From positions 12,775 to 76,774 of the forward strand of contig CAZPGE010000005.1 in NCBI GenBank assembly GCA_964586255.1: 64,000 nucleotides of DNA. The letters run 5' to 3'. Under the pieces are notes generated by a model that was not told where the DNA came from, made no database searches, and saw only the letters and a list, made by a program, of their open reading frames with translations. A program made the position numbers and the translations under genes. Shown here piece by piece: positions 14,841 through 61,700 of the stretch; the stretch's first letter is position 1, and every line of letters starts with the position of its first letter. Source of the DNA: an uncultured Candidatus Saccharibacteria bacterium (GTDB lineage Bacteria; Patescibacteriota; Minisyncoccia; Phycocordibacterales; UBA2100).

Positions 14841-15413
14841 ATGATGTACACGGAGAAGATGCAGCAGGCCATACGCTTCATGCTCAAGACGCATGAGGTC
14901 TACCAGAAGCAAAAGCGCAAAGGCAAAGACATCCCGTACCTCGCGCATCCGCTTACGGTGGGCCTCATCCTCGCGCGGGTCGGCGCATCGGAGGACCTCA
15001 TCATCGCGGGAATCCTACACGATACGATAGAAGACAGTACCGAAGAGAAAAAAGTGACCCGCGAGATGCTTGCAGAGCGCTTCGGCGAGCGTGTCGCTGA
15101 GCTGGTGCAGAGCGTGACCGAGGCGGATAGGAGTGTGCCGTGGGACGCGCGCAAGCAGGAGGCGCTCGAGCACATCGAGACTTTCTCGCACGATTCGGTC
15201 CTGCTCAAGAGTGCCGATGTGATAGCCAACAACGCCGAGCTTCTCGAAGACTATGCACTGCACGGCGACGCGACCTTCGAGCGATTTAGCGAGTCCAAAG
15301 AAAAGACGCTCGCCCACACACAGCGCGTCCTCGCCGCGCTCCAGGCTAAGTGGCAGGGGAGCCCTCTGACGGCCGACCTGGCCAACATGAGCACCTTGCT
15401 CTCCAAAATCTAA
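14841..15413 (+). CDS. HD-domain phosphohydrolase, small (p)ppGpp-hydrolase/Mesh1-like
   Basis: YLAHPLTVGLIL...IAGILHDTIED, the H..HD metal-binding motif of the RelA/SpoT HD family. Confidence 0.7.
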   Translation: MMYTEKMQQAIRFMLKTHEVYQKQKRKGKDIPYLAHPLTVGLILARVGASEDLIIAGILHDTIEDSTEEKKVTREMLAERFGERVAELVQSVTEADRSVPWDARKQEALEHIETFSHDSVLLKSADVIANNAELLEDYALHGDATFERFSESKEKTLAHTQRVLAALQAKWQGSPLTADLANMSTLLSKI

Positions 15414-15486
15414 GTAAACAGGGCGCAACATACGGCGCAGGCCTGTTCTAAGCCGTTTCCGTTTCCACGATTTCTCTATATGTGAG

Positions 15487-15894
15487 ATGATTTCCTCTAT
15501 GGATGAAGCCGGTTGGTACTCGACACTGCTTAAGCCCGTATGGGCGCCGCCCGCGTGGCTCTTTTCGCCGGTCTGGACGGTGCTCTATGCCATTATCGCC
15601 GCCACCTTCGGATACGTCTTTTACAAAACGTATAAAAGGGAATTGCCACTTCGTGTCGCGCTTCCGTTTGCGTTCAACCTGGTATGCAATGCGGCATTTA
15701 CCCCAATCCAGTTCGGACTGCAGAACAATCTCCTGGCCGCCCTCGACATCACTCTCGTGCTCATCACACTCGTGTGGGCGCTCCTTGTCATCTATCCGCG
15801 ATACCGATGGGTCGCGCTCGCAAATATCCCGTACCTGCTCTGGGTGTCTTTTGCGACCGTTCTGCAGTTTACCGTCACGTATTTGAACTTCTAG
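15487..15894 (+). CDS. tspO: TspO/MBR (tryptophan-rich sensory protein) family membrane protein
   Basis: W..L..P.W.PP...F..VW..LY, Trp-rich with 5 TM helices. Confidence 0.8.
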   Translation: MISSMDEAGWYSTLLKPVWAPPAWLFSPVWTVLYAIIAATFGYVFYKTYKRELPLRVALPFAFNLVCNAAFTPIQFGLQNNLLAALDITLVLITLVWALLVIYPRYRWVALANIPYLLWVSFATVLQFTVTYLNF

Positions 15895-15951
15895 CTACCA
15901 CTCCGATTTTTCACAAAGAAATCGTACGCAATTAGACACAGGGAATCTGTT

Positions 15952-15977
15952 CTAGTGTTTTGCAAAAGACTGCAATA
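15952..15977 (+). repeat. 26-nt near-palindromic repeat, copy A (candidate operator; overlaps the -35-like TTGCAA of the arsR-like gene)
   Basis: ctagtgttttgcaaaagactgcaata, with core AGTGTTTTG|CAAAAGACT (8 of 9 positions palindromic). Exact copies lie at 16242-16267 and 44438-44463. Confidence 0.8.
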
Positions 15978-15992
15978 GATTAAAATATATGC

Positions 15993-16268
15993 ATGGCGGA
16001 GGTTTCGTACAGGAAACTTGAGCGCATCATCAAAGGGTTCGCCAATCACCGGCGTCTGCAAATTTTGGACTTGCTCAAGCGCGAGCCGGAGTTATCCGTG
16101 GAAGATGTCTCGGAGAGGCTGCGCATAGGATATGAGAATGCGTCTGACCACTTGCGCAAGCTGGCGGTCGCGGGGCTCGTCCTCAAGCGCAATGAGGGGA
16201 GTAGTGTACGGCACAAGCTGACCACTCGCGCCGAGTCTATACTAGTGTTTTGCAAAAGACTGCAATAA
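15993..16268 (+). CDS. ArsR/SmtB-family HTH transcriptional regulator (91 aa), possible controller of the downstream RM gene
   Basis: HRRLQILDLLKREPELSVEDVSERLRIGYENASDHLRKLAVAGLVLKRNEGSSVRHKLT is a winged-HTH ArsR pattern. Its last 9 codons and stop are encoded by repeat copy B. Confidence 0.7.
   Translation: MAEVSYRKLERIIKGFANHRRLQILDLLKREPELSVEDVSERLRIGYENASDHLRKLAVAGLVLKRNEGSSVRHKLTTRAESILVFCKRLQ
16242..16267 (+). repeat. 26-nt near-palindromic repeat, copy B (3' end of the arsR-like gene, upstream of the RM leader)
   Basis: Identical 26-mer ctagtgttttgcaaaagactgcaata. Confidence 0.8.
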
Positions 16269-16274
16269 GAAATG

Positions 16275-16309
16275 GGGGGGGGAAGTGAGAAAAAAAGACA
16301 GGGGGGGGT
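16275..16309 (+). promoter_or_regulatory. Homopolymeric G9 (16275-16283) and G8 (16302-16309) tracts separated by an A7 run, about 215 nt upstream of the RM gene; candidate slipped-strand (phase-variable) or G-quadruplex-forming region
   Basis: aaatGGGGGGGGGaagtgagAAAAAAAgacaGGGGGGGGtggtgagggtagagggaggggtagg. Confidence 0.4.
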
Positions 16310-16521
16310 GGTGAGGGTAGAGGGAGGGGTAGGAAAATGGGGGATGTGTGGGATGATTTTGCATATGATGATTATCCTCGGTATAGCCGTATTCCTCATC
16401 TTCGCCATCGGCCTGGCCTTCGTCATCTCCTGAGAGGGGAAGGATGGCAGCGACAAAAAGGAATAATCCCACCCTGGGCCCCGTTTCCCCAAAGTGAAGA
16501 TTTGTGGGATGATTTCGCCTA

Positions 16522-19347
16522 ATGGCCGTCAATTGGAAAGATATACAAGATAGGTCCGAAAAGTTCGTTGTCGACTATCGTGACGCTAGGGATGAAGACA
16601 GGGACGCGAAACCATTCTGGAAGGACCTCATGACGCTCTACGGCGTTGAAGCGCGCTCCGTTGGAGCGTTTGAAGAGCGCGTGCGTGTCCACGGCAGACC
16701 AGGTGTCGGAAAAATAGACTATTTCGCGCCGCGGCAATTCCTCATCGAGCACAAATCGCGAGGCGAAGATCTCGATAAAGCATACAAGCAAGCGCTCGAA
16801 TATTTCGACTCGCTCGCGAGTGAGCTCCGCCCGCGCTACATCGTTGTCTCCGACTTCGCGCGTATCCGCGTGCACGACCTGGAAAAAGAAGAATCAGACC
16901 GCATCTCCGAGTTTGCGTTGGAAGAACTACCCTCGCGCGTGCGCGAGCTCGCATTTTTTGCGGAAGAAGACGTGCGTATCTACAAGCCAGAAGAGCATAT
17001 AGATGTAAAAGCAGTCCGTGTGGTGGGCAAGCTGCACAAAGCTCTCAAGACCTCCAATTATCCACAAGAAGATCTGCCGCGACTCCTTACGCGACTCGTT
17101 TTCTGTTTCTTTGCCGACGACATCGGGATATTCGAGAAAAATGCGATGCGACACTATCTCGAAGAGAACACCCGCGAAGACGGCGCTGATGTGGGTGAGA
17201 AACTTCACAATATCTTCGAAGTGCTCGACACACCCGACGGCACGGCAGGTTCACGCGATGAGCGCCAAGCGGGGACGCTCGATACGCTTCGTGACCTCCC
17301 GTGGGTCAACGGCGGCATGTTCAAAGGCCCCGTACGGCTTCTCCAGGGAGATAGGGAGATACGCGACATGCTCATCGAATGCATGTCTTTTGATTGGTCG
17401 CAGGTGTCGCCCGCAATATTCGGCTCTATGTTCCAGAGCATAATGAATGAGAAAGAAAGGCATGACCTCGGTGCGCACTACACGAGCGAGACCAACATCA
17501 AGAAAGTCATCAACGGACTTTTCCTCGAAGAATTGCAGAAAGAGCTCGACGTGGCTGCGACCAACAAAGACCGACTCAATGCATTGTGGGATAAAATTGC
17601 GAGAATCACGCTGCTCGATCCTGCCTGCGGTTGCGGCAACTTCCTCGTGATTTCGTACCGCGAACTCCGCACCATAGAGAACGAAATCATCCGCCGTATT
17701 CACGGGAGGGAAGACAAGCGCAGCGCTGCACATGCGCAGAGTCATGCCCGCCTCGGCCTCGCCAATGCTGATCTCGATACCATGTCGAAGCTCTCGATAG
17801 AGAGAATGTATGGAATAGAAATAGACCAGTTTGCGGCGGAGGTAGCTAAGCTTTCGCTCTGGCTCGTGGATCACAAGATGAACATCGAACTCGGTCGCAT
17901 TTTCGACCAGACGTTTAGAAAGTTGCCGCTCAAAGAGCAGCCGCACATCGTTCAGGACAACGCGCTGCGAATAGACTGGGAGAGCGTAGTCCAAAAAGAC
18001 AAGCTCACCCACATCCTCGGCAACCCACCATTCCTCGGTAAACATATGCAAACGCTCGAACAGAAGTCGGAACTACTAGAGGTGTTCGGTGGGGTACAGA
18101 ACGCCTCTGACCTTGACTACGTTGCCGCCTGGTATCGCAAAGCGACCGAATACATCCAGGGCACGAAAATCAATTGCGCATTCGTTTCGACAAACTCGAT
18201 CACTCAAGGGGAACAGGTGAGCATTTTATGGCCGGATGTGTTGTCTCGAGGGGTTCGGATTCAGTTCGCGCACAGAACGTTTAAATGGACAAATGAGGCC
18301 ACTGGAAAAGCGGCCGTGTACTGTGTAATCATTGGCTTCGGACTAACAGATGCTAAGCAGCCAAAACTGTTCGAGTATGACGATATCAGGGGCGAGCCGC
18401 GGATGGTCTTGGTCACACACATTAATCCTTATCTCGTAGATGCATCAAATGTTGTCGTAGAGAAGCGCCAGAGACCTTTGTGCGAAGTGCCGATAATGCG
18501 ATACGGCAATAAACCAAGTGATTCAGGCGCTCTCATTCTCAGTACAATGGAAAAAGATCGCCTAATCGTCGCAGAGCCGGTCGCTAAAAAATGGCTTAGG
18601 CCATATGTTGGTGCCGAAGAATTTTTGAATGGAGGTACCCGTTGGTGCCTATGGCTTGTTGGGATAACGCCTGATGAGTTGCGCGCAATGCCCGAGGTGG
18701 TGCGTCGAGTACAAGTAGTGAAAGACTTTCGCGAACTGAGTACTGCGAAACCCACCCGCGAGGCTGCCAAGACACCGTGGCTCTTCTTCTATGTCTCACA
18801 GCCCACAACCGATTACATTCTCATTCCTGAAACATCGTCGGAAAATCGGGAATGGATTCCCTTTGGTTTTGTATCTAAAGACGTGATATCGAGCAACGCA
18901 ACGTACCACATCCCCGAGCCTAATCTCTATGTTTTTGGTGTATTGCAGTCAACCATGCATATGGCTTGGGTTCGCACTGTGGCCGGTCGGCTAAAATCGG
19001 ACTATCGATACACAGGTAGCCTCGTCTACAACACTTATCCGTGGCCGGAAAAAGTGGGCGATGCGCAGAAAAAAGCCGTCGAAGACGCAGCGCAGAATGT
19101 TCTTGATGTGCGTGCAAAGTACCCCACCTCGACTCTCGCCGACCTGTACGACCCTCTCACCATGCCGCAAGATCTCCTCGTCGCACACAAGGCTCTCGAT
19201 AAAGCCGTCGACGCCTGTTACGGAGTGAAAGGTTTCAAATCCGAACCCGAACGTCTCGAATTCCTCTTTGAGCTATACAAGAAGCTCACTGCATCCGAAT
19301 CAAAGGAAGCGCCCGCCAAGAAATTCCACAAGAAAACCCTCTCTTGA
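16522..19347 (+). CDS. Type IIL restriction-modification enzyme, MmeI family (single-chain endonuclease + N6-adenine methyltransferase + TRD)
   Basis: Collinear with MmeI along its length: N-terminal AKPFW...IDYF...LIEHKSRGEDLDKAY (PD-ExK residues D..E.K), motif I LLDPACGCGNFLVISYRELR, motif IV ILGNPPFLGK, then FVSTNSITQGEQVSILWP and the C-terminal SLVYNTYPW...LYDPLTMPQDLLVAHKALDKAVD block. Confidence 0.9.
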   Translation: MAVNWKDIQDRSEKFVVDYRDARDEDRDAKPFWKDLMTLYGVEARSVGAFEERVRVHGRPGVGKIDYFAPRQFLIEHKSRGEDLDKAYKQALEYFDSLASELRPRYIVVSDFARIRVHDLEKEESDRISEFALEELPSRVRELAFFAEEDVRIYKPEEHIDVKAVRVVGKLHKALKTSNYPQEDLPRLLTRLVFCFFADDIGIFEKNAMRHYLEENTREDGADVGEKLHNIFEVLDTPDGTAGSRDERQAGTLDTLRDLPWVNGGMFKGPVRLLQGDREIRDMLIECMSFDWSQVSPAIFGSMFQSIMNEKERHDLGAHYTSETNIKKVINGLFLEELQKELDVAATNKDRLNALWDKIARITLLDPACGCGNFLVISYRELRTIENEIIRRIHGREDKRSAAHAQSHARLGLANADLDTMSKLSIERMYGIEIDQFAAEVAKLSLWLVDHKMNIELGRIFDQTFRKLPLKEQPHIVQDNALRIDWESVVQKDKLTHILGNPPFLGKHMQTLEQKSELLEVFGGVQNASDLDYVAAWYRKATEYIQGTKINCAFVSTNSITQGEQVSILWPDVLSRGVRIQFAHRTFKWTNEATGKAAVYCVIIGFGLTDAKQPKLFEYDDIRGEPRMVLVTHINPYLVDASNVVVEKRQRPLCEVPIMRYGNKPSDSGALILSTMEKDRLIVAEPVAKKWLRPYVGAEEFLNGGTRWCLWLVGITPDELRAMPEVVRRVQVVKDFRELSTAKPTREAAKTPWLFFYVSQPTTDYILIPETSSENREWIPFGFVSKDVISSNATYHIPEPNLYVFGVLQSTMHMAWVRTVAGRLKSDYRYTGSLVYNTYPWPEKVGDAQKKAVEDAAQNVLDVRAKYPTSTLADLYDPLTMPQDLLVAHKALDKAVDACYGVKGFKSEPERLEFLFELYKKLTASESKEAPAKKFHKKTLS

Positions 19348-19400
19348 GACCCCTTCGTTATAAGAACGCATTCTATGCAATAATATCTGTACCTGGACTT

Positions 19401-19751
19401 ATGCTTTTAGTCAGAACTAAAATTGCGAAGAGTTCCATACATGGGAATGGACTTTTTGCGGACGAAGACATTGCAAAGGGAACAATTGTTTGGTCGTTCA
19501 ATCCGCTTATCGATAAGATCTTGACAGATGAACAGATTCAGAGTCTCCCCGCGCATATTCGCGAGCATATTGATACCTATAGTTTCATTGATGACGGAAT
19601 GCATATACTGTGCGGCGACTTCGGGATCTTTGTTAACCATTCGGATACTCCGAACCTTGGATCAGCTGGGGACGACAGTGTTGCAATTCGCGACATCAAA
19701 AGGGGCGAGGAAATCACTGATGATTATGATTCCTATGGTGAAGAGATTTAG
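19401..19751 (+). CDS. SET-domain protein (putative protein-lysine N-methyltransferase), 116 aa
   Basis: SSIHGNGLFA...IAKGTIV...FVNHSDTPN...AIRDIKRGEEITDDY fits the SET pattern G.G.FA / NHSC.PN / RDI..GEE.T.DY. It starts 54 nt after the RM stop; the track's TTG at 19344 overlaps that stop. Confidence 0.7.
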   Translation: MLLVRTKIAKSSIHGNGLFADEDIAKGTIVWSFNPLIDKILTDEQIQSLPAHIREHIDTYSFIDDGMHILCGDFGIFVNHSDTPNLGSAGDDSVAIRDIKRGEEITDDYDSYGEEI

Positions 19752-19754
19752 CTT

Positions 19755-20297
19755 ATGGTGAGAACGCTCTACAACCTCTTAATACCAATTCTTATTGCTG
19801 CTATGGGAATGTTCCTGGGCTCCTGGTTGCTACTTCAGTATTCGCAGGCGCAATTAGTGATGTATACGGACGGGTATTATCAAAATATGGATGAGGTGGC
19901 CATCGGCGAGTTCTATATAGTGAACGAGGGTAGAGAGGTTGATGAGAACGTGACCGTGGCAATAAACAAAGAAATTGAGAAGGACGAATTGACCATCAAT
20001 TATACTCGCTCGAATTGGAATGTTGAAACGAAAGACGGCCTGACCTATATCAATTTTGAGCAGATCAATCCCGCGGAAGGGATAGAAGTGCTATTTAAAC
20101 TTGCCGCGGGTGATGCAAGCTTTAAAGTCGAGGACTTTACCAGCAAGTCTGGAAACACCTATATCAGACCGTGGATTGAGCCTTGGTGGTATTTCACAAG
20201 ATTACAGCTGGCGCTCATTTTCTTTTTCCTTACGATTGCGTTCGGCTTCGGATTTGTCATAGGACTATGGAAGAATGACGTACTTAGAATTCGCTGA
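19755..20297 (+). CDS. Hypothetical membrane protein (N- and C-terminal TM helices, central soluble domain)
   Basis: Hydrophobic termini; 3-nt gap after the SET gene. Confidence 0.5.
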   Translation: MVRTLYNLLIPILIAAMGMFLGSWLLLQYSQAQLVMYTDGYYQNMDEVAIGEFYIVNEGREVDENVTVAINKEIEKDELTINYTRSNWNVETKDGLTYINFEQINPAEGIEVLFKLAAGDASFKVEDFTSKSGNTYIRPWIEPWWYFTRLQLALIFFFLTIAFGFGFVIGLWKNDVLRIR

Positions 20298-21490
20298 TGC
20301 AAACGGACTTTCTGATTCTGGGAGCCGATGGAATGCAGGGCTCGACCATCAGTCGCTTTCTCTGCAAGAGAGGATACAGGGTATCATGTGCAGATCTTGT
20401 CGATACCCGTTTGGCTACGCTAGATTTCAAATATGTCTTCCATAAATTGGATGTTGCTGACCCAGCGGCCCTGGCGCAACGAATCCGTTTTGATAACCCA
20501 AGGATCGTCATCAATTGCGTCGAGGGAGATTTAAATCTGGACGTATATCGAGTCTGTTTACGCGAAAGAGTGAATGTCATCGACCTAGGTTCCAGCATCC
20601 TTCTTACTAAGAAACAACTTGCCCTGAATCGGCAATTCAAAGAATCAGCGATAATTGGTATCACTGGTTGTGGATCGACTCCGGGTATTAATAACGTAAT
20701 GTTCCGGCATGCGTTAGAAGATTTTGATGAAATTACTGACCTTGATCTGGGCTTTGCTTGGGATTCGAATCTCAAGGAATTCGTTGCTCCTTTTTCTATG
20801 GGTAGCGTCCTATATGAATTGTCCGAACCTGCACACTTCATAGAAGGAAAGGAGCTAAAGAAGACATCTCCACTCAAATCTGGGCGGAGTAGATGGATCG
20901 ATCCCATCGGAAAACAAGAACTGTTTCTAGTCCATCATCCAGAAATCTATTCTTTTAACAGATTTTGCAAGAAAAAAGGAAAGCAACCGCAGAATGTTTA
21001 TTTTTATGCAGGTTTTCCGGAGCACAGTCTTGCTACTCTTAAATCCCTTGTCCAGTTGGGATTTTCTCATTCCGAAAAGCCTGTCACTCTCGACGAGGTT
21101 GCCATATACCCAACAGATTTCCTGACAATGATGTTAAAGAACATTGATCTGCCTGATTCTTATGTCGAGACAGAGGTATTGTGGGTAAGTATTAAGGGAC
21201 TGAGGGCGGGAAAGCCAAAAGTAGTAAAAATGGTATGCATCGTAGATTCGTTACCAGATTGGCGGATGGCAGGGTGTAATATCGATACTGCATTCCCGGC
21301 GGCATTAATTGCTGAAATGATTTACCGGGGTGAAATCAGTTCAAAGGGGAGTTTTTCTCCAGAGGAAGTTGTGCCTGAACAGCGATTCTTCAACGAGATC
21401 GCTAAATTTGGGATGCGAATATACAAAAACGGAGAGCTTATCAATGGGCTTGATCTGGTGGTCCGCAATGCGGCGGTGCGAAGCGGATAA
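20297..21490 (+). CDS. Saccharopine-dehydrogenase-like NAD(P)-binding protein (SDH / carboxynorspermidine-dehydrogenase superfamily)
   Basis: N-terminal Rossmann FLILGADGMQGSTISRFL; about 400 aa, the size and architecture of Sacchrp_dh proteins; ATGA overlap with the upstream gene. Confidence 0.6.
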   Translation: MQTDFLILGADGMQGSTISRFLCKRGYRVSCADLVDTRLATLDFKYVFHKLDVADPAALAQRIRFDNPRIVINCVEGDLNLDVYRVCLRERVNVIDLGSSILLTKKQLALNRQFKESAIIGITGCGSTPGINNVMFRHALEDFDEITDLDLGFAWDSNLKEFVAPFSMGSVLYELSEPAHFIEGKELKKTSPLKSGRSRWIDPIGKQELFLVHHPEIYSFNRFCKKKGKQPQNVYFYAGFPEHSLATLKSLVQLGFSHSEKPVTLDEVAIYPTDFLTMMLKNIDLPDSYVETEVLWVSIKGLRAGKPKVVKMVCIVDSLPDWRMAGCNIDTAFPAALIAEMIYRGEISSKGSFSPEEVVPEQRFFNEIAKFGMRIYKNGELINGLDLVVRNAAVRSG

Positions 21491-21511
21491 ATTTTTGAAT
21501 CCACATGATCT

Positions 21512-22342
21512 CTATAGGAACCTGTCGGATGACGTCCCTGACTTAATGAGCGAGCGATAGAGGAAGGGGAATCGAAGTCGGTCGAGCTCAAGAAAATATA
21601 CTTCCGCAGGTTTTTCGGGTGAGCCACCGACACCGAAAGCGACGTAGACAGGGATACCTGTTTGTTTCTGGTAGTCCTCGTAGCGCATTTGCTGTCCCAT
21701 ATTCCACCAAATACCCTGGCCACCGTTTGGCTGCCACGCCCATTTCCCGCGCCACTTACATTCAATGGCAAATACCTTACCGCTTTGCACGGAACGAAAT
21801 ACAAAATCAGGATGGCCGTCCGATTCCACTCGGCGCTTGATATGCTTCCCCGTGTCGCGCGTTCGGTCCTGTATGGTGAAATCTGATTCAGGAAATAGCG
21901 TCACGATATAATCCTCAAACCGAGTGCCTTTTTTGTATGAATCTGTCGCCCAGTATGTCGCATAAACAACGCCCGCGATGGTCAGAATATCCAATATCAC
22001 CCAAATCTCACGAGGGAGTGAAAAATAGGCAAAAGGATTAAACAGCGCAGCCGTGAGTGCGCTCGCGAGCGCGATTTTCTTGTTGCCAAGTTGTAGAAAG
22101 AGAATCGATAGAGCGCCAAAGATGCCGAAGGCGGCTAATCGGAGAGCGTAGAAGTTCTCGCTTATACCAGTAGCGGCAATGAAGAGAACGATCGCAACGC
22201 AGCCTGCGCCTATACGCACGCTATAGATTAGATTTTGCGTCGCAAACATGAAGAAATCATACCACCGGCAAATAGACCAAAATAGGAGAGAAAGGTCATT
22301 TGTGCTAGGATGGTCCGGAAGGTCGTTCCCCTTAGTAGCCAC
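21512..22342 (-). CDS. Membrane protein with C-terminal PD-(D/E)xK nuclease-like motif (NERD/restriction-endonuclease-like fold), GTG start
   Basis: Three or four N-terminal TM helices; C-terminal GHPDFVFRSVQSGKVFAIECKWRG (PD...E.K). Confidence 0.5.
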   Translation of the reverse strand: MATKGNDLPDHPSTNDLSLLFWSICRWYDFFMFATQNLIYSVRIGAGCVAIVLFIAATGISENFYALRLAAFGIFGALSILFLQLGNKKIALASALTAALFNPFAYFSLPREIWVILDILTIAGVVYATYWATDSYKKGTRFEDYIVTLFPESDFTIQDRTRDTGKHIKRRVESDGHPDFVFRSVQSGKVFAIECKWRGKWAWQPNGGQGIWWNMGQQMRYEDYQKQTGIPVYVAFGVGGSPEKPAEVYFLELDRLRFPFLYRSLIKSGTSSDRFL

Positions 22343-27317: not shown

Positions 27318-27918
27318 GAGTGAAATAGCGCGTGAAGAACTTTGCTATGATTCGCTCATGACCGCACGCGCATGGCTTTCCCTCGGCGCCCTCTTCATCG
27401 TGGCGCAGGCGGGCATCCTGTACCTCTTAGGGCAACCGACCATCTGTGAATGCGGCATAGTGAAGGTGTGGGAGAGTGCGGTGCTCTCCGTGGGCAACTC
27501 ACAGCATCTTTCTGACTGGTATTCCTTTTCCCACATCATTCACGGCGTCATTTTCTATGCGCTGCTCACGTATTTCTTCCCGCGTATGCCGCTTTTTGCG
27601 CGCTTTGCATTTGCGGTAGGTATCGAAGTGGCGTGGGAGATACTCGAAAATACCCCGATGGTCATAGAGCACTATCGTCAGCAGGCGCTCGCGCAGGGGT
27701 ATGTAGGCGACTCAATACTCAATTCTGTATCCGACACGCTCATGATGGTGGGCGGTTTCTTCCTTGCGTGGCGACTCCCGACGTGGACGAGTGTGGCGCT
27801 CTGCATCCTTCTGGAAGTGTTTGTGATGTACATGATTCGAGATGGCCTCGCGCTCAATATACTGGGATTCGTGTACACACCGGAATTCATCGCATCGTGG
27901 CAGAATAGTGCGCAGTGA
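27316..27918 (+). CDS. Hypothetical integral membrane protein
   Basis: Five or six TM helices; TATACC 5 nt upstream of the ATG. Confidence 0.5.
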   Translation: MSEIAREELCYDSLMTARAWLSLGALFIVAQAGILYLLGQPTICECGIVKVWESAVLSVGNSQHLSDWYSFSHIIHGVIFYALLTYFFPRMPLFARFAFAVGIEVAWEILENTPMVIEHYRQQALAQGYVGDSILNSVSDTLMMVGGFFLAWRLPTWTSVALCILLEVFVMYMIRDGLALNILGFVYTPEFIASWQNSAQ

Positions 27919-43262: not shown

Positions 43263-43991
43263 TTGACCATGAAATACATGGCCGTCGCGGTCGCGCTCGT
43301 TCTTGCAGCGTACGCGGTGTACGAGTACGCCCGCATATCTAGACTCATAGAGACGAGTCGTCAGCTCGTCAAAGAGGCGAGACCATTCTCTCGTGAAGAG
43401 GGAAAGATTCATATTCTGGTTGTCGGTGATAGCACGGCCGTCGGAGTGGGTTCGAATGCTGAAAGCACTGTCGCAGGAAGGCTCTCCAGAGCTCTGGATG
43501 CCTCCGTTGAAAACTATGCGGTGAGCGGTGCGAGGACGCGAGATATAGGTACGCAATTTGCGCTCAAGCAGCGCACAGAGTACGACATGGTGCTCATACA
43601 TATAGGTGCCAATGACATCATTCGCTTCTCCGCTCTTGAGAAGCTCCGTGATGATATATCTCTTGTGCTCAAAGATGCGAAAGGCGTTTCGGATAGAGTG
43701 GTGCTTCTCACCGCGGGAAGAGTAGGGGACGCGCCATTCTTTCCGCGTGCGCTCGGATGGCTGTGGAATTACCGCTCATCTCAGGTCCGAAGTCACTTCA
43801 AGGCATCCGCGGAAAAGTATGAGATAGCGTATGTCGACTTGTATGAAGCAAAAGACCCCTTTAGCTCGAATCCGACTCGTTTTTATGCACCGGACGGTCT
43901 CCATCTCACCGATGATGGATATGAATTTTGGTACGAGGAGGTGGCGAAGGTCATAGAGACGACGTGGCCGGGCAATCTCTATGACCAGTAA
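43263..43991 (+). CDS. SGNH/GDSL-family hydrolase, membrane-anchored
   Basis: GDSTAVG (block I) and DGLHLT (block V, DxxH). Confidence 0.75.
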   Translation: MTMKYMAVAVALVLAAYAVYEYARISRLIETSRQLVKEARPFSREEGKIHILVVGDSTAVGVGSNAESTVAGRLSRALDASVENYAVSGARTRDIGTQFALKQRTEYDMVLIHIGANDIIRFSALEKLRDDISLVLKDAKGVSDRVVLLTAGRVGDAPFFPRALGWLWNYRSSQVRSHFKASAEKYEIAYVDLYEAKDPFSSNPTRFYAPDGLHLTDDGYEFWYEEVAKVIETTWPGNLYDQ

Positions 43992-44784
43992 AAAGACACG
44001 CGCATTTCGAATCACGGTTTGGGAATACTATAAGAAACACGCGCGACATGAGTTGCCGTGGCGCAAGACACGCGACCCATACAAGATACTTGTCTCAGAA
44101 GTTATGCTGCAGCAGACGCAGGTTCCACGCGTTGTGGATAAGTACAAAGAATTTCTCATAGCATTTCCGACTATCTATGTACTTGCACAAGCGTCGCTCG
44201 CCGATGTGCTCAGGGTCTGGAGCGGGCTTGGGTATAATCGGCGGGCAAAGTATCTCCACGACGCGGCAAAGGTGATTGCCAATGAGTACAGAGGCGACAT
44301 AGAGGCCGCCACAAAGGCTAAGAAGCTTCCCGGCGTGGGACCATACACGAAATCTGCGGTACGTGTCTTTGCATTCAATGAGCCCCATGTACTGATTGAG
44401 ACCAATGTCCGCGCCGCATTTATCCATCACTTCTATTCTAGTGTTTTGCAAAAGACTGCAATAACGGATAAGGAGCTTATGCCGATTATAGAAAAAGCTG
44501 CGGAAAGCCAAGACCCGAGGGAATGGCACTGGGCACTTATGGACTATGGCTCGCATGTAAAGAAGGCGCATAGTAATCCGGCGCGACGCAGTGCTTCCCA
44601 CATCCGTCAGTCGAAATTTGAGGGGAGTCTTCGCCAAGTGCGCGGCGCGATACTGCGTGCATTGCACGAAGGCGTGTCGTTGAAGACATTGCCGTACGAA
44701 CAGGCGCGACTAAAAATCGCCCTCGCATTACTGCAAAAGGACGGTCTGTTGGCAAAAGAGGGGAAGACCTGGCGTATCGCCTAG
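43981..44784 (+). CDS. MutY/EndoIII-like HhH-GPD DNA glycosylase lacking Fe-S cysteines; contains a copy of the 26-nt repeat in frame
   Basis: LPWRKTRDPYKILVSEVMLQQTQV...VLIETNVRA... is MutY-like; there are no Cys in the usual cluster region. Repeat copy C encodes SSVLQKTAIT. Confidence 0.7.
   Translation: MTSKKTRAFRITVWEYYKKHARHELPWRKTRDPYKILVSEVMLQQTQVPRVVDKYKEFLIAFPTIYVLAQASLADVLRVWSGLGYNRRAKYLHDAAKVIANEYRGDIEAATKAKKLPGVGPYTKSAVRVFAFNEPHVLIETNVRAAFIHHFYSSVLQKTAITDKELMPIIEKAAESQDPREWHWALMDYGSHVKKAHSNPARRSASHIRQSKFEGSLRQVRGAILRALHEGVSLKTLPYEQARLKIALALLQKDGLLAKEGKTWRIA
44438..44463 (+). repeat. 26-nt near-palindromic repeat, copy C (inside the mutY-like CDS)
   Basis: Identical 26-mer ctagtgttttgcaaaagactgcaata; the flanks ttctattCTAG resemble copy A's tctgttCTAG. 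Confidence 0.8.
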
Positions 44785-52702: not shown

Positions 52703-52765
52703 GTTTTTCTAAAGCATTCCACATGCGGCGCCACGAATGTGGCGCCGCGCTGGTATGATTGGGCT

Positions 52766-55700
52766 ATGTCGAGCCTCGCAAGGCTATTCTTTCTTGTACT
52801 CATCAGTACATCTTTTTCGCTCCCGGGAAATGTGGCTGCGCTTTCGGCTGAGGCGAATGCGATGTGCAAGCCATACATCGCGGAGTGCCCGTGCAATCAG
52901 GTGCTGAATAAATGGAGGTTCATGCCCGGTCAGCCGAAGTGTAAGGCGGGTGGAGAGAAAAACGGCGCGGGATATAGCAATACACATGCGTGCAAGGTGG
53001 GTGTATGTAAAGACGTCACAAACGAACACGTGACACAGGGAGTGTGCATTGCGGCCGGGAAATGTGAGGGGAAGCTTGCAGACGACAAACCGGTACAAAA
53101 GACTGACGTGCCGGTGAAAGACGGCGATAAGCCGGTGACCGCTGAGCCGCCGCCTCCGCCATCGGTATCAGACACGGGTGATGTGACAGGTGGCATGCCG
53201 CAGAAACCGGAGGTGCCTGAGACGACTGTGCAAGACCCGACAAAGGACCTCCAGGAGACACCTGACACCGAAACCCCCATCCCGTCCGGCTCTGCGAAGA
53301 GTGTCGAAGATCAGTTGAAGGAAGCGGCAGGCGAGCCGAGTCTCTGGGAAAGGTGGTTTGGAGGTGAAACTACGCCGAAGCCGGAGACTCCTGCACAACC
53401 GGATGCTCCAGTGGGGCTCGACGGGCAGCCAGTGCAGACACTCCAGCCCGACGCAGTAGCCGACCCGCAATTGTCAGACACGGGAGTCGTTCAGACTCAG
53501 CCGGGAGAATCTACTCACACATTTGGTCAGCCTGAGGAGACCAAAACTGTCCCCGCGGAAGATGCTACGTGGTGGGGTGCGGTAAAAGATACTGCTTCTA
53601 ATGTTTGGGAGGGGGCGAAAGATATTGCGGCGAACGTGCGCGACACAGTGGCGGGCGCGTTTACATCGGATACACCATCGACTCCAAGTATCGGTGAGAT
53701 AGAGATGCCACCGCCGCCGGCGGAAGTGCCGACGTTAGCAGACACGACAACCGGTGGAACACCAGAGCCGGTACCCGCAGGCGCCAGCGCGGAGCCATCC
53801 GCGACGCAACTCAATACACCGGGAAATGTGGGACCAGTGCCGTATGCAGAAGAGCTTTCGAAACTTGGCTTCGGCAATGACTTGCTGGGAAGCAGGCTCA
53901 AAGAATTGAATGGACTTATTCAAAATGGCAATGATCGGATTGAAGCGGGAAATGCGGACCTCACAACGCGAAAAGAGTCGCTCGATGCGCAGTATGCGCA
54001 GCTGAAGAGCGCGTGTGCTGCGAATACGTGCACACAGTCACAAATAGACACATACAAAGAACGAGCAGCTGCGTACGACCGAGATGCAGCAACGCATAAA
54101 AAACTCGCAGAACAAACGAGGGAATACGTCGACTCCGCGAAAGCGATAGCCTCTGCATTGAACAAGCCAACAGACCTCTCTGCGTATACGGGACGCGTGC
54201 CTGATACACCGGAAAATAAGTTTGTGAGCGATGTATCGCGCGCGGCGCTCGGAGAAATATCGAGGCAAGAGGTGAATGCATTCTGGAACGATACGCCCGC
54301 AAGTGACCTGGTGACAGAGAGATCTCGAATCGCGGGGAATGCTTTTGAGGCGGCGACACACAATGTCACTCCATCACAAGTTGCCGACGCGTTTGGAGAT
54401 TCTGCGCGGCTCTCGGATATTCGGAATCAGACTGCAATTACAGCGGCACAGGAGCAGCTTCGACAAATAGAAACGATTCGTTCGGATACGCCGATTAGCC
54501 AGCTCACACCCGAGCAAGCGGACCTCCTCTATAGAGAGCCGCTCATACGCGAGGAGCTCACTCGACTCGAAAGTGAGTCGCAGTCTCGTGCAGAGAGGAC
54601 TGAGAATATCCAACACGCTCTCCGCAACAGTCAGTATGGAGAGCAGCTGGCGCGCGCGCTGACTACCGAACCAAAAACGCCAGTTGAGCGACTTATACAA
54701 GAGCAGCTCTATTTGAAAGCGGCGGAATTATCGCGCAACAACTTCGCCGCCGAATTGCTTAGGAATACGGAGCAAGCACCGACGGGGCTTACGCCGGAAG
54801 ATTATTACATCCCGGTGGATACCGGGAAAAATGTGTACACGGATGGGGCAGCACAAGCGGATAGGCATATCGGAGAATTGACGGGTGCTCTCAAGCCGTC
54901 ACCGGAAACACAGAGTCTCTTAGACCGCGTAAATGGCAACGAATCATTCGGCCGATATGCTCCGCGAGCGCTCGCTGATGCGACAAATTTCATCGCGGAC
55001 TTGCCCGCAAAAGGATTGGAAGCATTGGGTGTGAACAGCACGGTAGCACATGTGGCCAACGGCATTCTCAACCCGGTCAAATGGGGAGCGGCTGCCTATG
55101 ATGCGTACCTCACGCTTTCGGGCAACCCAAGTACAGAGAGAATGCTCAGCGAGTATGGCATGTCGTCTGGAGAGAGGACATTCGCGCGAGTGATGGATTA
55201 CGCGTCGATAGCTGGTGCGGTCGCCCCATCGCGTGCCCTCATGGGTCTTGGGTCGACCAATGAAATCGGTGTTGTGGCCGAATCGTCGCGCGCATTTACA
55301 TTGAGTGATTCGGTCGCGACGAATGCAGCACGTGTAGAATTGCCGGCGCGAGATTTCGGAGCGGGCGCGTATAAGCATGTCGGCGATACGCCGCTTGGTC
55401 CTGTCTATGCGGCCGACACGCTCCCGTCTGTAGCATCGAGGGTTTCAAACACGGAACGGCAAGCCATCGAAGCGCTTAGCGGCAGGTCGCTCACATCTGC
55501 CGACCGCACGATACTCTCGCAAGTGGGACTTGAAGCGCGGCCATACGGAACCGTACAGGCGGAAATAACGAGAGGTGCGGGCGTGGCGCAGATTACCGAA
55601 AGTGTAAACATCCAGCGAACGGCGCTGGTTAACGGCAATGGGGAAGTAGTGGCTGTCCAAAGCCGCGTCCTCGGCTCTGGCGCGGCAAATTTCGATGCAA

Positions 55701-58700
55701 TGGAAAGATTTGCAATCGTTGCAACTCCGGAAAACACAGGAGTATTCGCATCGCTGCGCCAGCAATTCGACAATTGGTTTGGCCGTTCGGAGCCGACTCC
55801 GAGCGCGCGGCCAACGACGGCAGATGCGACACCGTCTTCCGCTGGTGATACGACACCTTCGGCACGCCCCGCCGATACTCCGGCGCTCCTAGAGTCTCCT
55901 CGAGGCACGACTCCATCTCGTACCGCAGACGTGCCTGATGGTGCGGTGCCGACAACTCCTCGAACAGCTGCAACAGACGGGCAAATCAGCGAAATCGGTC
56001 GTCCACAAAATCTCCCAGATGCACCCGCTGCTCCTCGTGATGTCACGCCAGCGAATACGCCTGATGTCCCTGTGGTCCAGACACCCGACGCGCCTCTTGT
56101 ACCCGACGGAGCGCCAGGAGTGATTCCTGCAGAACCTCTTGCCTCTACTTTGCCGACTACTGGATGGAACCCGAGTGAGTCGCTTGCGAGATTCGCGAAA
56201 GCGAGTGTCGTAGCATTTGGTCTTCTTCACAGCCCAGTGTCTCCGCTTGTCGATACGGCCGTAGCCAGAGGTGTATCAGGCGTGCCGGGCACCGTCTCAG
56301 TAAAAGCCTGTCTTTCAGACTGGACGTGTCTTACGCCGGAGACGGGACTCGGTAAGCGATACGAATTGAACAACGTAGGGTCCAATGGCGGGAACAGGAC
56401 CGCATCTGGCTACCAGCCAGGGCCAAAGGACATGCTCATCGCTTCGCAGACATATCCACTCGGCACATATGGAGAGCTATGCAACGGCGGCAGATGCACG
56501 AAGGTATTTGTAGGCGACACAGGCAATTTCAATCAGGCAAAATATCGCTACGCCAAATTTGACCTGCTCCCACAAGTGTCTTCGGTCGTAGGTCCGACGG
56601 CTGCACAGGGGAGGACGACGATGACGTTTACGCCGTATGGAATAGCAAAGGTAGAAGATGCCGCGGCAATTACGCGAGCAATGAACGCGGGGACTGCATA
56701 CCCCGATGCGGTCGCGCAGATACAGAACAAAGTAATTGCATACGCGCCGGGGAAGAGCGTCGAGCCGACAGCTGTAGCACAGGCTGCGCCGCCCGTCCCG
56801 CAAACACCGACGAGAGTCGCAGATATATCGCCCGCAGTACCCGCAAGCCAGCCAGCGGCAGCGGGGGAGCCGCGGTCTGCTGGGCCTCGTACAGCACTTC
56901 CGGCAGAGCTCGACACTTCGACTTGGACCACGAGGCGCATAGTCGATTCTTTTGTGCCGACGAAGACACCGGTACAGGTCGTCGCTGCAGAGCTCGCGAA
57001 TCCTACGGCAGAAATAAATGCGCTTTCATCGGCGCTCGTCGCAGACGGAATCATCCCTCGAGGCTCGACGGTCACTGCGGCCGCGGATGGGACGACGAAT
57101 GTACGAATTCCGAGCGGGGAGGTGCAGACACTCAAGGTAGTGGTTCCCGAAGCACCTGCCAATCTCAATATCACAGCACCGCGTGTCAGTGTCGGCGAGC
57201 TCAGAAAAGTGTACGCGCAGACAAAGAGTCCCGACATAGGCCGGGTGCTCAGGGCAATTGATGAGCGCGGATTCAATACCGTCCCTGACCGCGCATTTTT
57301 GAACAACGACACTCTCAAACAGCTCGTCGGAGTCTTGCGCGACTACGACAGAATGTTCCCCGGTCAGGTGCCTATCATCAATGAATTGAGCGACACTATC
57401 GGGCGCCCCTTCTCTAGCACTCACACATTTGGTCAAGCTATCGACTTCCGTGCGCGCGAGTGGAGCCCGCAAGTGAAAGCGTTGCAGAATATCTTGCTCT
57501 CACATGGGATGGCGACCCCATATTCGCTCTTCCACGGTACCGGCCCGCACTTGCATGCGGACGGGGGAGAAGTGAAAGCCGCGGATGCCTCGAATCTCAA
57601 CATCTCATACAAGACCGCACCGCAATACGCGCTGCACGATGCAGAGGGTGCGCAGGTGGGGAAACAATTCGCGCTCGGTGGACCGAAAGCTGCGCCAGTA
57701 CCGCCGACAAAGGTGGCAACCGCCCCGCTCCCGAAGCCGTCTCCAGCCCAAGTCGCAATCGGTACATTTGAACCACCGGCGCCGACAAGACCCGGCCCCG
57801 CATTTACTGCGGACAATGTGCCGGCCGAATGGAAGCAGTCGCCAATCACTGTGGCGGAAGCGAAGCCTCCCGTTACAGCCCCTGAGCCTGCGGCAGTGAC
57901 CGTGCCTCCTGCGCCAAAGGCGCCTATCGCTAAACCCGCGCCGATTCAGGCTGCGGAGATTGTTCCTGTCCCGAAGCCACGACCAACTGTATCCTCGACG
58001 AAAGTACCTACAGTCACAAAAGCTGCGACTCGCAATGTTCAGCCGAAAGCAAAGAATCAGGTTGCAGTCACGAAGCAGTTGCCCCCTGTAGATACGCGGT
58101 CAGCCGATGAAATCGCAGCGCAGATGCTCGCACTCAACAACAAAGTAGCTGCACAACTGAAGGTTCCGCCCGCCGAAGCGATGCCGAAGCTTCTAGAGAG
58201 AAATACTAAAATTGGCCAGTCTCTGAAGTCCGTGCAGGCTATAAAGAGCGAGCTCGATGAGCTGGCTAATAAAGTAGTGAGTACGTCTTTGAAGTCTCAG
58301 ACACTCTATGACCAGGGCAACACCGCCGCTTCTAAGGTTGAAGGAAACAAAGTCCAACCTCTTTTCCAGCAACTCGTGGCGCATACAAAGCAACTTTCCA
58401 CGGAAGCTCTTACTGAGGCTGATATTAAAGCGGTGCAAGCAGCGGCCGGTCGTGCTAACTCGGCAGCAAATGTACTCGAGGACACCATTCATCCAGACAA
58501 GGTTGTGGGTATCTATATGAACTCGAAAAATCCCGACGGCACGGCAAAGTTTGCGGACCAAGCTGCATTCGTGAAGTACGTAAAGGGGCTGGCGGGGAAT
58601 TTCCGTGGCAGTGTGGCGCAAGTTTCGTCACCTTTGTCTACCAAGATCAAGTCGTATCAAGTGGAGATTGCTTCCAATGACGCTCTCCTCAATCAATCAA

Positions 58701-61700
58701 AGCAGTTGATGGCCGCAAAACTCAATGCGGATAGCTTGGGTGCCAAGTACGCGCTCGAGCAACTTGAAGGACAGAAAGCGACCGACGAGGCGAATGCGAG
58801 AATAGCGGCCCTCCCTCCTATTGCGGGCCTCGAGGACCTCCTCCAGTCGCCGATTGTTTCGCGAGAAGCTCGTGATGTACCGCTTTCAGAACTTTTTTCC
58901 GAGCTGAAGAATGACGTGTTGGCATTTGCACGGGAAGAGCTCGGCTTGTTTGGCGGTCCGGGTTCTGGGGGACGCACTGTCACCGTAGAGGTCGCGCCAT
59001 CGGTAAAAACTCCTGAAGTCGCCCCGGCGAAAGTTGCCGCGGTTGAAGTGCCCCCTGCTAAGAGTGCTCAAGTGCGGCCGGGGAGTGCCGCACCTACATC
59101 CGCCGTACCATCCTATGTGCCGCGCATCGCGCGATTTGGCACGGAACCTGGCACGGGACCAGTCGTGTATTCTACGCCGGCGAATATTCCTGTATTGCAG
59201 GCGCGCATGAATGTGGCGATTAGGCCTCGCAAGCCTGAAATACAAGCGGGAAGCGGAGGGCAAATATCCCCGACGCCGCGGCTCGAACCACTTCCACCGG
59301 TGCCGAGCGCAGAAGCTGCTGCGCTCGCGAGAGAGCAAGCCTTGCGTAACCCAATCGTAGGTACCGATGATTTTGCGAATTTCCCACGGCAAAAACTCGA
59401 GGGAGAGGATGCACTGCTGCAAGAGGCCGCGATTGCCAAATATGTATCAAACAAAGAGCAATTGCTCGATACGTATGAAGCCCATTTTGGTACGAAGGTC
59501 GTCAATCCCGACCTCGCGAGGCTGCTCTTCAGGGATATGGGCTATACGGGAGTCAATTCGGCCGCAGTACAAAAAGTTGTCGCCGACATGACCGACGAGC
59601 TATGGAAACGTGCGCTCGCAAACAACCCTGAAGATTATGTTGTCCTCTACACAGGTTCGGCTGGCTCGGGTAAATCAAGCTCGATAAACAACGTACTTCC
59701 TGAGATGGAGGCACGGGCCGCCGTGATTATGGATGGCACTCTCTCCAACAAGGTGCTCGCCGAGCAGAGAATTGCGGAAGCGCTCGCGGCAGGGAAGCAA
59801 GTTGAAGTCATTAATGTGTATCGCGATCCAGTAGACGCATGGAACAACGGCGTCATCGCTCGTATGAAAGATGCGCAGTCGATTGATGCTGGAAGAGTCG
59901 TACCCATATCGGTATTCGTAATGGGATATAAGCGTTCGATGGAAGTTGTGAATTCATTGCTTACCAATCCGCGTGAGGGTGTGCATGTGAGTTTGATAGA
60001 AAACGTGATTCCCGGCTCACCGAGTGAGATGAGTCCGGAGCGTTTCCAAAGCATCCGGTACTCATCGAGTATAGAGCGAACGATTCGCAACAACACCGCT
60101 GATCTTCTTGGGCGTGGAGAAATCACACCACGGCAGTACGAGGCAATCACGGGTGCGGAAGCGCCAGGCAAGCTCGCGCTCGTCGCCGACGAGCCGATCG
60201 TGCCGGTGGATAGAGAGATTCCATCTCTTACCGAGCCGGTAGCGACTGCTCCGGAGGGCCCTGTCGCGGCACTTTGGACAGGGGATGGTGTCGAGGAAAG
60301 GCTCGCATGGATACGCGGGGTGCCAGAGAGAGTCACATTAGGTCTGCAAAACTCAGTGAACAAAATTCGTGATCTAATTCCAAGCGTACAAGAGCAGACG
60401 TATCTTCCGCCTGCCGTGACACAAGCGGAGGCCGAGAGCCTTGCGCGGATAGAAGGGGCACTTCTCGATATAGACGCACGATTTCCACGGGAAGTACCCG
60501 ACGATGTGCTCGCCACACTTGAGAGAGAGCTGCAGCAGCAGGTGGCGGGGCTGAGACCATCTGAGATTGACACCATCGCGCAAAAAAGTCTCTGGCAGCG
60601 TACGAAAGAATTCTTCTCACCGAGTAAAGAATCGACCGGTGCCGCGGTGCGAGAGCCCGAGCAGCTCCAACTGCCGCTCGATGAGCCCGTACAATCGGGA
60701 CGACCGCAGGTCGATGCTACTCCCGAGCAGGTGCCAACCTCGCGCCAAGGGGAGCTCTTCCCCGAAGAGCAGCTAGAACTGCAATTCCCGACGACGGGGG
60801 ATTATGTTCAGGCGAATCTGCCGCTCGATGAGCCAGCGCAGCCGACTCGAATTCCTGACACACCAATCCAGCGTGAGCTTCCCCTCGAGTCGCCGCTTAC
60901 GGAGACGCAGCTCGAGCTCCCGCTCACTCAGAGACAGCCCGGTCTGATAGAAAGAATTCGCAATCGTATTGTAGGTACGTCGAAACCATCCGTCACCGAA
61001 CCCGTATCAGGTACAAACTATCGATACAATCCCGTCACCGACCGCTTGGAGCCAATCGCTGTCGCGCCATCGCCGGCATCGACACCGAGCCCGGCGCCAG
61101 CCGCGGAATCACGGTCGCTCACCGTGGGAAGTACCGAGGCATTCGGCGGGGCTCTACCGCCAGCAAGCGGGAAAACGCTCGCAGGGAAATTTGGCAGCGC
61201 TTCGTGGGGCACCGCAAAATTCCTGTGTGGTGGATGGAGGCGTGCAGCGTTTTGTGGCGCCGTGGGGACAGGAGTATATCTGACTGCTTCGGGGTCATCG
61301 GACCCAACATCGCCCGCAGCACCTACTGGGGGCAGTCAGCCAGGCACGGTGAGGCCGACGACTGCAGGTACTCAGACACCTACTGCGCCTTCCGCTCCAG
61401 GCACGACCCCTGCCGGCTCCGTATCGAGTCCAGTGACGCCTATACCAACACCGACTCCGACACCGACTCCGACTCCGACACCCGTCCCAACTCCTACGCC
61501 GACGCCGGCACCAGCTCCAAAACCAGGGAATCAACCAGCTCCTTCTCCTGCGCCGGTTCCGACGCCCGTGCCACTACCGAAGCCAAGACCGGACGGAGCA
61601 CCTGCGCCTGTGCCCGCACCGCAGCCTCAGCCGCAACCTGCTCCGGTCCCATCTCCTGCACCGGCACCGTCACCCGAACAGCCAACAAAGTCTGGCTCAG

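Follow-up and report, generated by a model that had tools for sequence, protein, structure and literature searches.

The poly-C/G tracts of opc and porA in Neisseria and the TA repeats of hif in Haemophilus lie between, or overlap, the -35 and -10 hexamers, and in cj0031 of Campylobacter jejuni the poly-G tract is inside the reading frame. The latter gene encodes a phase-variable Type IIG restriction-modification (RM) enzyme (PMC4889913), and in PhasomeIt the tracts counted are those in a reading frame or a putative promoter region, with a cut-off of at least 7 for poly-G/C (PMC6321876). Here we discuss a 64-kb stretch of DNA (the window, 64,000 nucleotides in all) from an uncultured Candidatus Saccharibacteria bacterium, in which runs of nine and eight G residues lie between the gene for a small ArsR-type regulator and that for a Type IIG RM enzyme. 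A sequence-only reading of this DNA had proposed that the two runs, placed in the leader of the RM gene, are a switch for its phase variation or form a G-quadruplex (G4). As in cj0031 there is a Type IIG RM enzyme close to G runs of at least 7, open to the same slipped-strand mispairing, but the cj0031 tract is in frame, whereas those of the window lie beyond both gene and -10 box, at 214-248 nt upstream, and homologues of the RM gene have none. With opc, porA and hif the locus shares an intergenic homopolymer near an operator or promoter, but in the window no -10 follows the adjoining palindromic element (copy B below), and the nearest -10 box starts 44 nt past the G8 run.

With confidence a little better than even, we favour the view that the runs are part of a spacer, hypermutable and potentially G4-forming, that adjoins a conserved operator palindrome, and that its influence on the downstream genes is at most indirect. 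G9 and G8 would then be the longest runs in a non-coding spacer of ~100 nt that is nearly free of C, rich in G and A and cryptically repetitive. This spacer would be the 3' companion of a ~32-bp palindrome, filling the gap to the next leaderless promoter, and would change by replication slippage and short tandem duplication, because of which run lengths would differ between orthologs. The RM gene would be transcribed from its own extended -10 box, 8 nt ahead of its ATG, in which case a change in tract length could switch it neither through a frameshift nor through the -35/-10 spacing. If the tract has an effect, this would probably be indirect, the tract hindering read-through from the ArsR gene as non-B DNA or as G-rich sequence, or acting as a spacer of variable length between operator and downstream promoter. 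The features concerned are as follows.

16242..16267, + strand: copy B of the palindromic element, coding for the last ArsR codons and part of the stop codon
16264..16361, + strand: C-depleted, G/A-rich spacer holding G9 and G8, with 1 C in 98 nt
16264..16315, + strand: degenerate 26-nt tandem duplication, AATAAGAAATG9AAGTGAG / AAAAAAAGACAG8TGGTGAG (repeat search, 73% identity)
16274..16282, + strand: G9 run, beginning with the G of the ATG at 16272, itself 3 nt past the ArsR stop
16290..16296, + strand: A7 run (run scan)
16301..16308, + strand: G8 run (run scan), the counterpart of which is a G5 in L036, from a related species
16301..16329, + strand: canonical G4 motif GGGGGGGGTGGTGAGGGTAGAGGGAGGGG, found by regular expression as a putative quadruplex sequence with four G runs of at least 3 and loops of 1-7 nt
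16503..16513, + strand: extended -10-like box TGTGGGATGAT, 8 nt ahead of the RM ATG (repeat and box scans)
16522..19347, + strand: MmeI-family Type IIG RM enzyme of 941 aa (Pfam, PADLOC)

Read directly, the stretch is aaatG9aagtgagA7gacaG8tggtgagggtagagggaggggtagg. In the run scan G9 and G8 are the sole G/C runs longer than 6 in the window, the others being seven G6 and one C6, with none of length 7. For independent and identically distributed bases at G = 0.285 our own arithmetic gives ~17 G6, ~5 G7 and ~2 runs of at least 8, so long runs are generally avoided in the window, and the two exceptional ones are only 19 nt apart. Among 16,916 background windows of 120 nt from related loci just 0.11% have a G run of at least 7. 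The two runs are in the longest C-poor stretch of the window, 16264-16361. When the 78-nt core of the tract (44 G, 25 A, 8 T and 1 C) is shuffled, 25% of the shuffles have one or more runs of at least 8, and 1.4% have two. Local composition thus accounts for G9 and G8 in part, though not fully. An Rfam scan of 15300-17000 gave no known RNA family, the only match being a chance one to a snoRNA (E = 0.49).

A related species is informative on how the tract changes (loci in other assemblies are given as L numbers). To the left of the locus is an HD-domain gene and then a TspO gene. In L004, L173 and L036, all from the related species, identity to the window is 85-88% for the HD gene and 95% for the ArsR cassette. 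The homology of the cassette ends at window positions 16280-16282, in the last bases of the G run, at which point the relatives have G4AG4 (L004, L173) or G7 (L036), with a hairpin and a convergent gene coming next. L036 has a further copy of the element ~630 nt downstream, then AAATG-G8, in a module with no C in the 90 nt scored past the element (~105 nt by eye). This module has ~33 nt, ...GGGGTAGGAAAATGGGGGATGTGTGGGATGA, identical to the window and ending in an extended -10-like box, then an ortholog, MIILAVVLFLAFAIGLAIVMSREGQDSSNDKKTP, of a small membrane ORF of the window, and then a Mrr-type restriction gene with its own TATGGGATGAT box. The G9 of the window corresponds to the G8 of L036 and the G8 to a G5. 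Elsewhere L113 and L043 differ by a (GA)n indel, and L032 has aaaagggggttga in three repeats. The variation of run length among orthologs, the 26-nt tandem unit, the (GA) indel and the triple repeat indicate a cryptically simple sequence that has probably diverged by slippage and short duplication.

Other assemblies of the same strain break at the tract: L003 ends at 16283, while L001 and L002, which come from separate runs, each begin at 16349, so that no short-read contig spans 16284-16348 and one assembly only crosses the whole tract. The G9 run is reproduced in the independent short-read contig L003, and the G8 run is on the long contig only.

The tract appears to go with the palindrome and not with any one gene. 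In the orientation of the element, 13 of the 173 unique copies have at most 7% C in the right 90-nt flank; only 0.38% of background windows are equally depleted, and of 175 left flanks none is. Downstream of copy B there are G4 motifs at 4 of 36 loci (background 0.19%, an enrichment of ~58-fold) and G runs of at least 7 likewise at 4 of 36 (background 0.11%). An alignment of ten loci gives a common plan: the element, then 60-110 nt that are rich in G and A and poor in C, often with a short C-rich piece after them, and (T)GTGGGATGAT, which stands 6-9 nt ahead of the ATG of a variable gene. The palindrome with its G-rich tract recurs before unrelated genes in other genomes, and many copies of the element are without a G-rich flank. 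As judged by these comparisons, the tract is a directional 3' companion of the palindrome. The distance from operator to promoter varies between modules (~97, 103 and 135 nt, counted from the sequences), and phasing is therefore unconstrained.

The regulator and the rest of the palindrome system are on the following features.

15952..15977, + strand: copy A of the palindromic element, CTAGTGTTTTGCAAAAGACTGCAATA, an exact repeat that overlaps the ArsR promoter
15959-15986, + strand: ArsR promoter TTTGCA-16-TAAAAT (promoter scan), with TAAAAT 6 nt ahead of the ATG in leaderless layout
15993..16268, + strand: ArsR/SmtB-family winged-helix regulator of 91 aa (Pfam, NCBIfam, structural relatives)
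44438..44463, + strand: the element for a third time, again exact, and here within a HhH-GPD glycosylase gene (43981-44784), with which it is in frame (YSSVLQKTAIT)

The 91-aa regulator matches HTH_5 (30.7 bits, cut-off 22) and HTH_20 in Pfam and scores 54.7 bits, with a cut-off of 55, for HTH_metalloreg in NCBIfam, and its nearest solved structures are HlyU, CadC and CzrA. The 26-nt element has three exact copies in the window where none is expected by chance, and in full is an imperfect palindrome of ~32 bp, TCTATnCTAGTGTTTTGCAAAAGACTGCAATAg. Its 21-nt core is present at 100% identity in 53 contig stretches of a genome collection in which each GTDB species has a single genome, and in over 120 contigs from metagenomes; the stretches are mostly from Kaiserbacteria and Paceibacteria, with other Patescibacteria (loci L005-L177). 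In many other genomes pairs of elements 287-302 bp apart bracket homologues of the ArsR-like gene. Since copy A covers the promoter and the pairing of gene and palindrome is constant, we infer that the palindrome probably serves the neighbouring ArsR/SmtB-like regulator as its operator. Copy B was considered as the RM promoter and rejected, as AATGGG stands where copy A has TAAAAT. We also dropped an origin-proximal, parS-like role, suggested by a GC-skew minimum at ~4 kb and a weak similarity to AspA, because eight large ORFs scanned in the first ~10 kb span that minimum and include neither DnaA nor any other replication gene. Scans of viral contigs gave no match to the palindrome or to the conserved promoter segment, and in the literature searched we found neither the palindrome sequence nor a link between the Candidate Phyla Radiation (CPR), a palindrome and ArsR.

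For G4 potential the thresholds were four G runs of at least 3 with loops of 1-7 nt, and a G4Hunter score of at least 1.5. There are just two canonical motifs on the + strand of the window, that at 16301-16329 included, and the G4Hunter peak of 2.24 at 16300 is the window maximum. ViennaRNA gives the isolated tract -26.2 kcal/mol with G4 terms and -3.5 without them, and the G-rich spacer is thus predicted to be able to form a G4 on the sense strand. Modules of the window, L023, L061 and L113 have the motif; L015 has none, and none of the short-loop canonical form is visible, by eye, in the L036 ortholog.

Much of what the sequence-only reading said of the tracts themselves is borne out. The runs are present as it quoted them and are rare in the window, and the orthologous positions hold G9, G8, G7 or G4AG4, as expected of the slippage substrate that it took them to be. 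The suggested G4 has a canonical motif and the top score of the window, its folding being predicted only. The location given, 16275-16309, is right apart from a start one base off, as G9 runs from 16274, and the tracts do lie, as it said, after copy B and before the start of the RM gene, from which a small ORF and two promoter-like boxes separate them.

The RM gene itself is well defined, with all five MmeI Pfam domains and a full-length match to REase_MTase_IIG of PADLOC (E = 0), and its TGnGATGAT box is at 16505-16513. The closest homologue, and most of the related loci, are from metagenome-assembled genomes of Kaiserbacteria or Paceibacteria, and the window itself is taken to be from a Kaiserbacteria-like genome of the CPR. 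Homologues 67-69% identical (L178-L182) are in unrelated neighbourhoods that have no ArsR gene, and the 330 nt upstream of each has no G/C run of at least 6. One of them, L180 (67% identical), keeps an RM-proximal gaagattcgTGcGATGATttccgctaATG that is close to the gaagatttgTGgGATGATttcgcctaATG of the window. Because the proximal box is kept there and the homologues are without the tract, the signals that travel with the RM gene are therefore probably the ~30 nt before its ATG, and the G tracts are not among them. The tracts are 214-248 nt upstream of the ATG at 16522, outside the reading frame and outside any -35/-10 spacer, and the two classic mechanisms of RM phase variation are therefore inapplicable. 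TTTCCCC was tried as a -35 for the RM gene and rejected, as L036 has this motif ~75 nt away from its -10 box.

The earlier placing of the tracts in a leader of the RM gene is thus not upheld, as this gene has its own box 8 nt upstream like other apparently leaderless genes, and the proposed on/off switch falls with the position of the tracts outside frame and core promoter and with homologues that have neither tract nor ArsR gene. In the window a box TGn(T/G)A(T/G)(G/A)AT stands repeatedly 6-8 nt ahead of the ATG of a real ORF, as it does for the RM gene, TspO, the small ORF and the genes that start at 27358, 31200, 52766 and 62125 on the + strand and 22248 on the - strand. Box positions are for example 15483, 16505, 27343, 31184, 52751 and 62110 (+) and 22264 (-), of the form TGnTAtgAT. 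Many other genes of the window have a TAnnAT-type hexamer at the same distance, and a minority have classical Shine-Dalgarno (SD) sites. This layout implies leaderless mRNAs with an extended -10 promoter, which would be widespread in the genome. In the literature searched, two papers mention Patescibacteria as well as "leaderless"; neither shows a link between the two, and in one of them leaderless mRNA arises only in relation to YchF. The box at 52751 also bears on a 3,118-aa ORF of unknown function at 52739-62095, which is listed from a GTG at 52739 and probably begins at the ATG at 52766.

What follows the module varies. One module, 95-97% identical between loci, stands before three different genes, for a Type ISP-like RM enzyme (L113), a 311-aa protein like that of L162 (L156) and DpnI (L043 and L149); the homology stops at the -10 box and synteny resumes downstream. 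Likewise the module shared by the window and L036 precedes MmeI in the window (16522-19347) as against Mrr in L036 (356-1246). This suggests that the module marks a variable slot for restriction genes.

Several observations weigh against our favoured reading. The middle of the tract cannot be aligned between the window and L036 and yet is C-free in both, which hints at a constraint beyond that on a mere spacer. Of eight modules that are clearly G-rich, four stand before genes for restriction enzymes (MmeI, Mrr, DpnI and Type ISP-like), and a functional tie of such modules to restriction genes is possible. The contig ends at 16283 and 16349 fit real length heterogeneity as well as they fit loss of coverage at G4-prone DNA. 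The frame opened by ATG and the G run continues into the membrane ORF both in the window (G9, 53 aa) and in L036 (G8, 68 aa). Lastly, the promoters and transcription start sites are deduced from sequence alone.

The alternative that survives best, though we think it unlikely, is that non-B DNA is itself functional. A G4, or a triplex formed by a purine mirror repeat, would be under selection and would block or attenuate read-through from the ArsR gene, or would initiate recombination at the left border of the slot. The G4Hunter maximum with its canonical motif, the ~58-fold enrichment of such motifs downstream of copy B, the C-freeness of diverged orthologs and the presence of the same module before different genes, with homology ending at the -10 box, all fit this. 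However the L036 ortholog has no short-loop G4 by eye and L015 has none, many copies of the element do without a G-rich flank, and the folding is a prediction. Moreover a tract that diverges by slippage can stay C-free even if it is not selected for this, although selection may also act on C-freeness or on G4 potential.

Two described G4 elements are of interest here. That associated with pilE in Neisseria gonorrhoeae is upstream of a gene exchanged by recombination, and in the window too there is a G4 motif upstream of apparently exchanged gene content, with the G-rich strand as sense strand; however no silent donor copies are evident here, the exchange, as deduced from sequence comparison, would be of whole unrelated genes, and the likeness is an analogy only. 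Mitochondrial conserved sequence block II (CSBII, G5-6AG7-8) is a transcription-termination and primer element with length heteroplasmy and a G4-dependent block to transcription. Its two G runs split by an A resemble the G4AG4 of L004 and the G4AG8 of L097, but it belongs to another domain of life and another polymerase, and no replication origin is evident at our locus.

The next alternative involves the region between the tract and the RM gene, which has the following features.

16337..16522, + strand: alternative ORF of 61 aa, its reality uncertain, with an SD-like GGGAGGGG 7 nt upstream and a stop that overlaps the RM ATG (TAATG)
16347..16357, + strand: extended -10-like box TGTGGGATGAT, 7 nt ahead of the ATG at 16365; the ~33 nt ending here are identical in L036
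16365..16433, + strand: small hydrophobic ORF MMIILGIAVFLIFAIGLAFVIS, 22 aa, with an ortholog in L036
16466..16492, + strand: C-rich tract CCCACCCTGGGCCCCGTTTCCCC, partly complementary to 16332-16358

Slippage could in principle give translational phase variation of the small membrane protein, by shifting the frame that starts at the ATG at 16272 and runs through G9 and G8, and so removing an N-terminal extension rich in Gly, Lys, Arg and Glu. Besides the frame shared with L036, several indels leave a net difference in length of 6 nt between the two species, a frame would be open with a probability of ~0.11 in each from the composition, and the public annotation has the 53-aa form, starting at 16272 and ending in the hydrophobic helix. 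Even so we find this distinctly improbable, as the sequence of the extension is not conserved, and the identical ~33 nt are read in different frames by the two species, the conservation therefore being at the level of DNA, as a promoter. The -10 box 7-9 nt before the membrane ORF would supply it with a start of its own, the ATGGGG... frames at other loci stop after 5-23 codons, and T-poor sequence is expected to be open by chance, two of three frames being open in L036. A protein search with the 53-aa ORF found only itself on this contig, with no length variants and no homologues.

The L036 ortholog of the membrane ORF is at 1348-1452 on the - strand, and a TGA in the window, where L036 has CGT, has cost the window copy a charged C-terminal tail (REGQDSSNDKKTP in L036). 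The ATG of the 61-aa ORF is in L036 in frame with the membrane ORF instead. A peptide likeness, APFPQ..WDDF, between the 61-aa ORF and the upstream regions of L113, L043 and L162 was put down to promoter conservation at the DNA level, because stop and frame are not conserved. The motif CCCC(A/G)TTTCCCC, similar to the C-rich tract of the window, is present in L036, L113 and L043. A long hairpin of the G-rich with the C-rich segment was rejected, as the RNA fold of 16262-16535 is no better than that of shuffled sequences (z = -1.0).

A broader proposal, which we hold to be quite doubtful, is that palindrome, C-free G-rich tract and -10 box are a conserved and portable "landing pad". This would be the fixed upstream border of a slot for restriction or defence genes in the CPR, the tract, prone to slippage and to G4 formation, serving as a recombination initiator analogous to the pilE G4, or as a barrier gated by the ArsR-like protein, or both.

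We consider very improbable the model of the sequence-only reading, in which tract length tunes or switches transcription of the RM gene in the manner of a phasevarion, for example through operator-promoter phasing or read-through from the ArsR gene. The runs of 8-9 do exceed the cut-off of at least 7 for phase-variable loci (PMC6321876), a Type IIG enzyme with poly-G is a known phase-variable case (PMC4889913), and contigs break at the tract. A terminator scan found no terminator-like site between the ArsR and RM genes, and on read-through RNA the 61-aa ORF, with its SD-like site and a TAATG on the RM start, could couple translation. However the tracts are far upstream of the ATG, in neither the frame nor a -35/-10 spacer, a conserved -10 box belongs to the RM gene itself, RM homologues do without any tract, and the unconserved operator-promoter distance leaves phasing unconstrained. 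An RM phase switch would, if true, have been the first contingency locus proposed for the CPR/Patescibacteria, but the architecture does not support it.

That the tract lengths are assembly or sequencing artefacts is scarcely credible, for although poly-G and G4-prone DNA is error-prone in sequencing and a single assembly crosses the whole tract, G9 recurs in the independent assembly L003, an orthologous G8 is in the assembly of another species (L036), and the tract is internal to a 326-kb contig.

There remains, as we read it, a hypermutable, G4-capable and directional purine tract tied to an apparently undescribed palindrome, together with evidence of largely leaderless genes with a recognisable extended -10 box and a conserved module ahead of interchangeable restriction genes. 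Of more interest than the G runs are the palindrome and, behind it, the variable slot for restriction genes. Most of the organisms concerned are, to our knowledge, uncultured, and hardly any of their regulatory elements have been mapped by experiment; the putative operator, the promoters and the possible recombination border offer handles on regulation and on the turnover of defence genes.

Two further groups of known systems invite comparison with the ArsR gene and its palindrome. In C-protein RM systems a small, autoregulated helix-turn-helix gene with a palindromic operator is upstream of, and co-oriented with, a restriction gene, and the window has the same order, with a putative operator and autoregulation. 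However the regulator of the window is of ArsR/SmtB type and not Xre type, homologues of the RM gene occur without the regulator, and homologues of the regulator mostly precede varied genes that are not RM genes. Rickettsia palindromic elements, and repetitive extragenic palindromic (REP) sequences with the REP-associated tyrosine transposase (RAYT) gene that they flank, are dispersed palindromic repeats. Our palindrome is likewise dispersed and in frame in housekeeping genes, with two copies flanking a small gene, but it is a ~32-bp element, identical across many lineages of Patescibacteria, and the gene that it flanks is for a DNA-binding regulator and not a transposase.

Solo copies of the palindrome occur in many genomes in frame (Y[AS]SVLQKTAI) and at fixed positions within unrelated housekeeping genes: the glycosylase gene (window 44438-44463; L024, L101, L146), a PurN-like gene (L016, L044), and genes for Sua5/YrdC (L027, L145), GNAT (L138) and alanine racemase (L022). 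In L070 the host is a gene of the amidohydrolase family, dihydroorotase-like by our reading. The flanking codons diverge around these copies while the core stays identical.

On the left of the locus, the TspO gene with its promoter (15418-15941) is absent from the orthologous junction of HD and ArsR genes in L004, L036 and L173, and its promoter region, 15459-15499, is 71% identical to that of the RM gene, 16481-16521. On the right, the GC content over 19000-22000 of the window is 0.44-0.47 as against ~0.55 elsewhere; the genes here are a SET-domain gene, an unknown gene of 180 aa, a saccharopine-dehydrogenase-like gene and an opposite-strand gene at 20284-20907. This low-GC stretch suggests an island, starting at the module, that was probably acquired horizontally. 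Finally, at one syntenic site L113 (reverse complement, 5619) has element, ArsR gene and element where L043 (2883) has a single element, and the ArsR gene with one repeat thus behaves, on this comparison, as an apparent insertion/deletion unit of ~290 bp.

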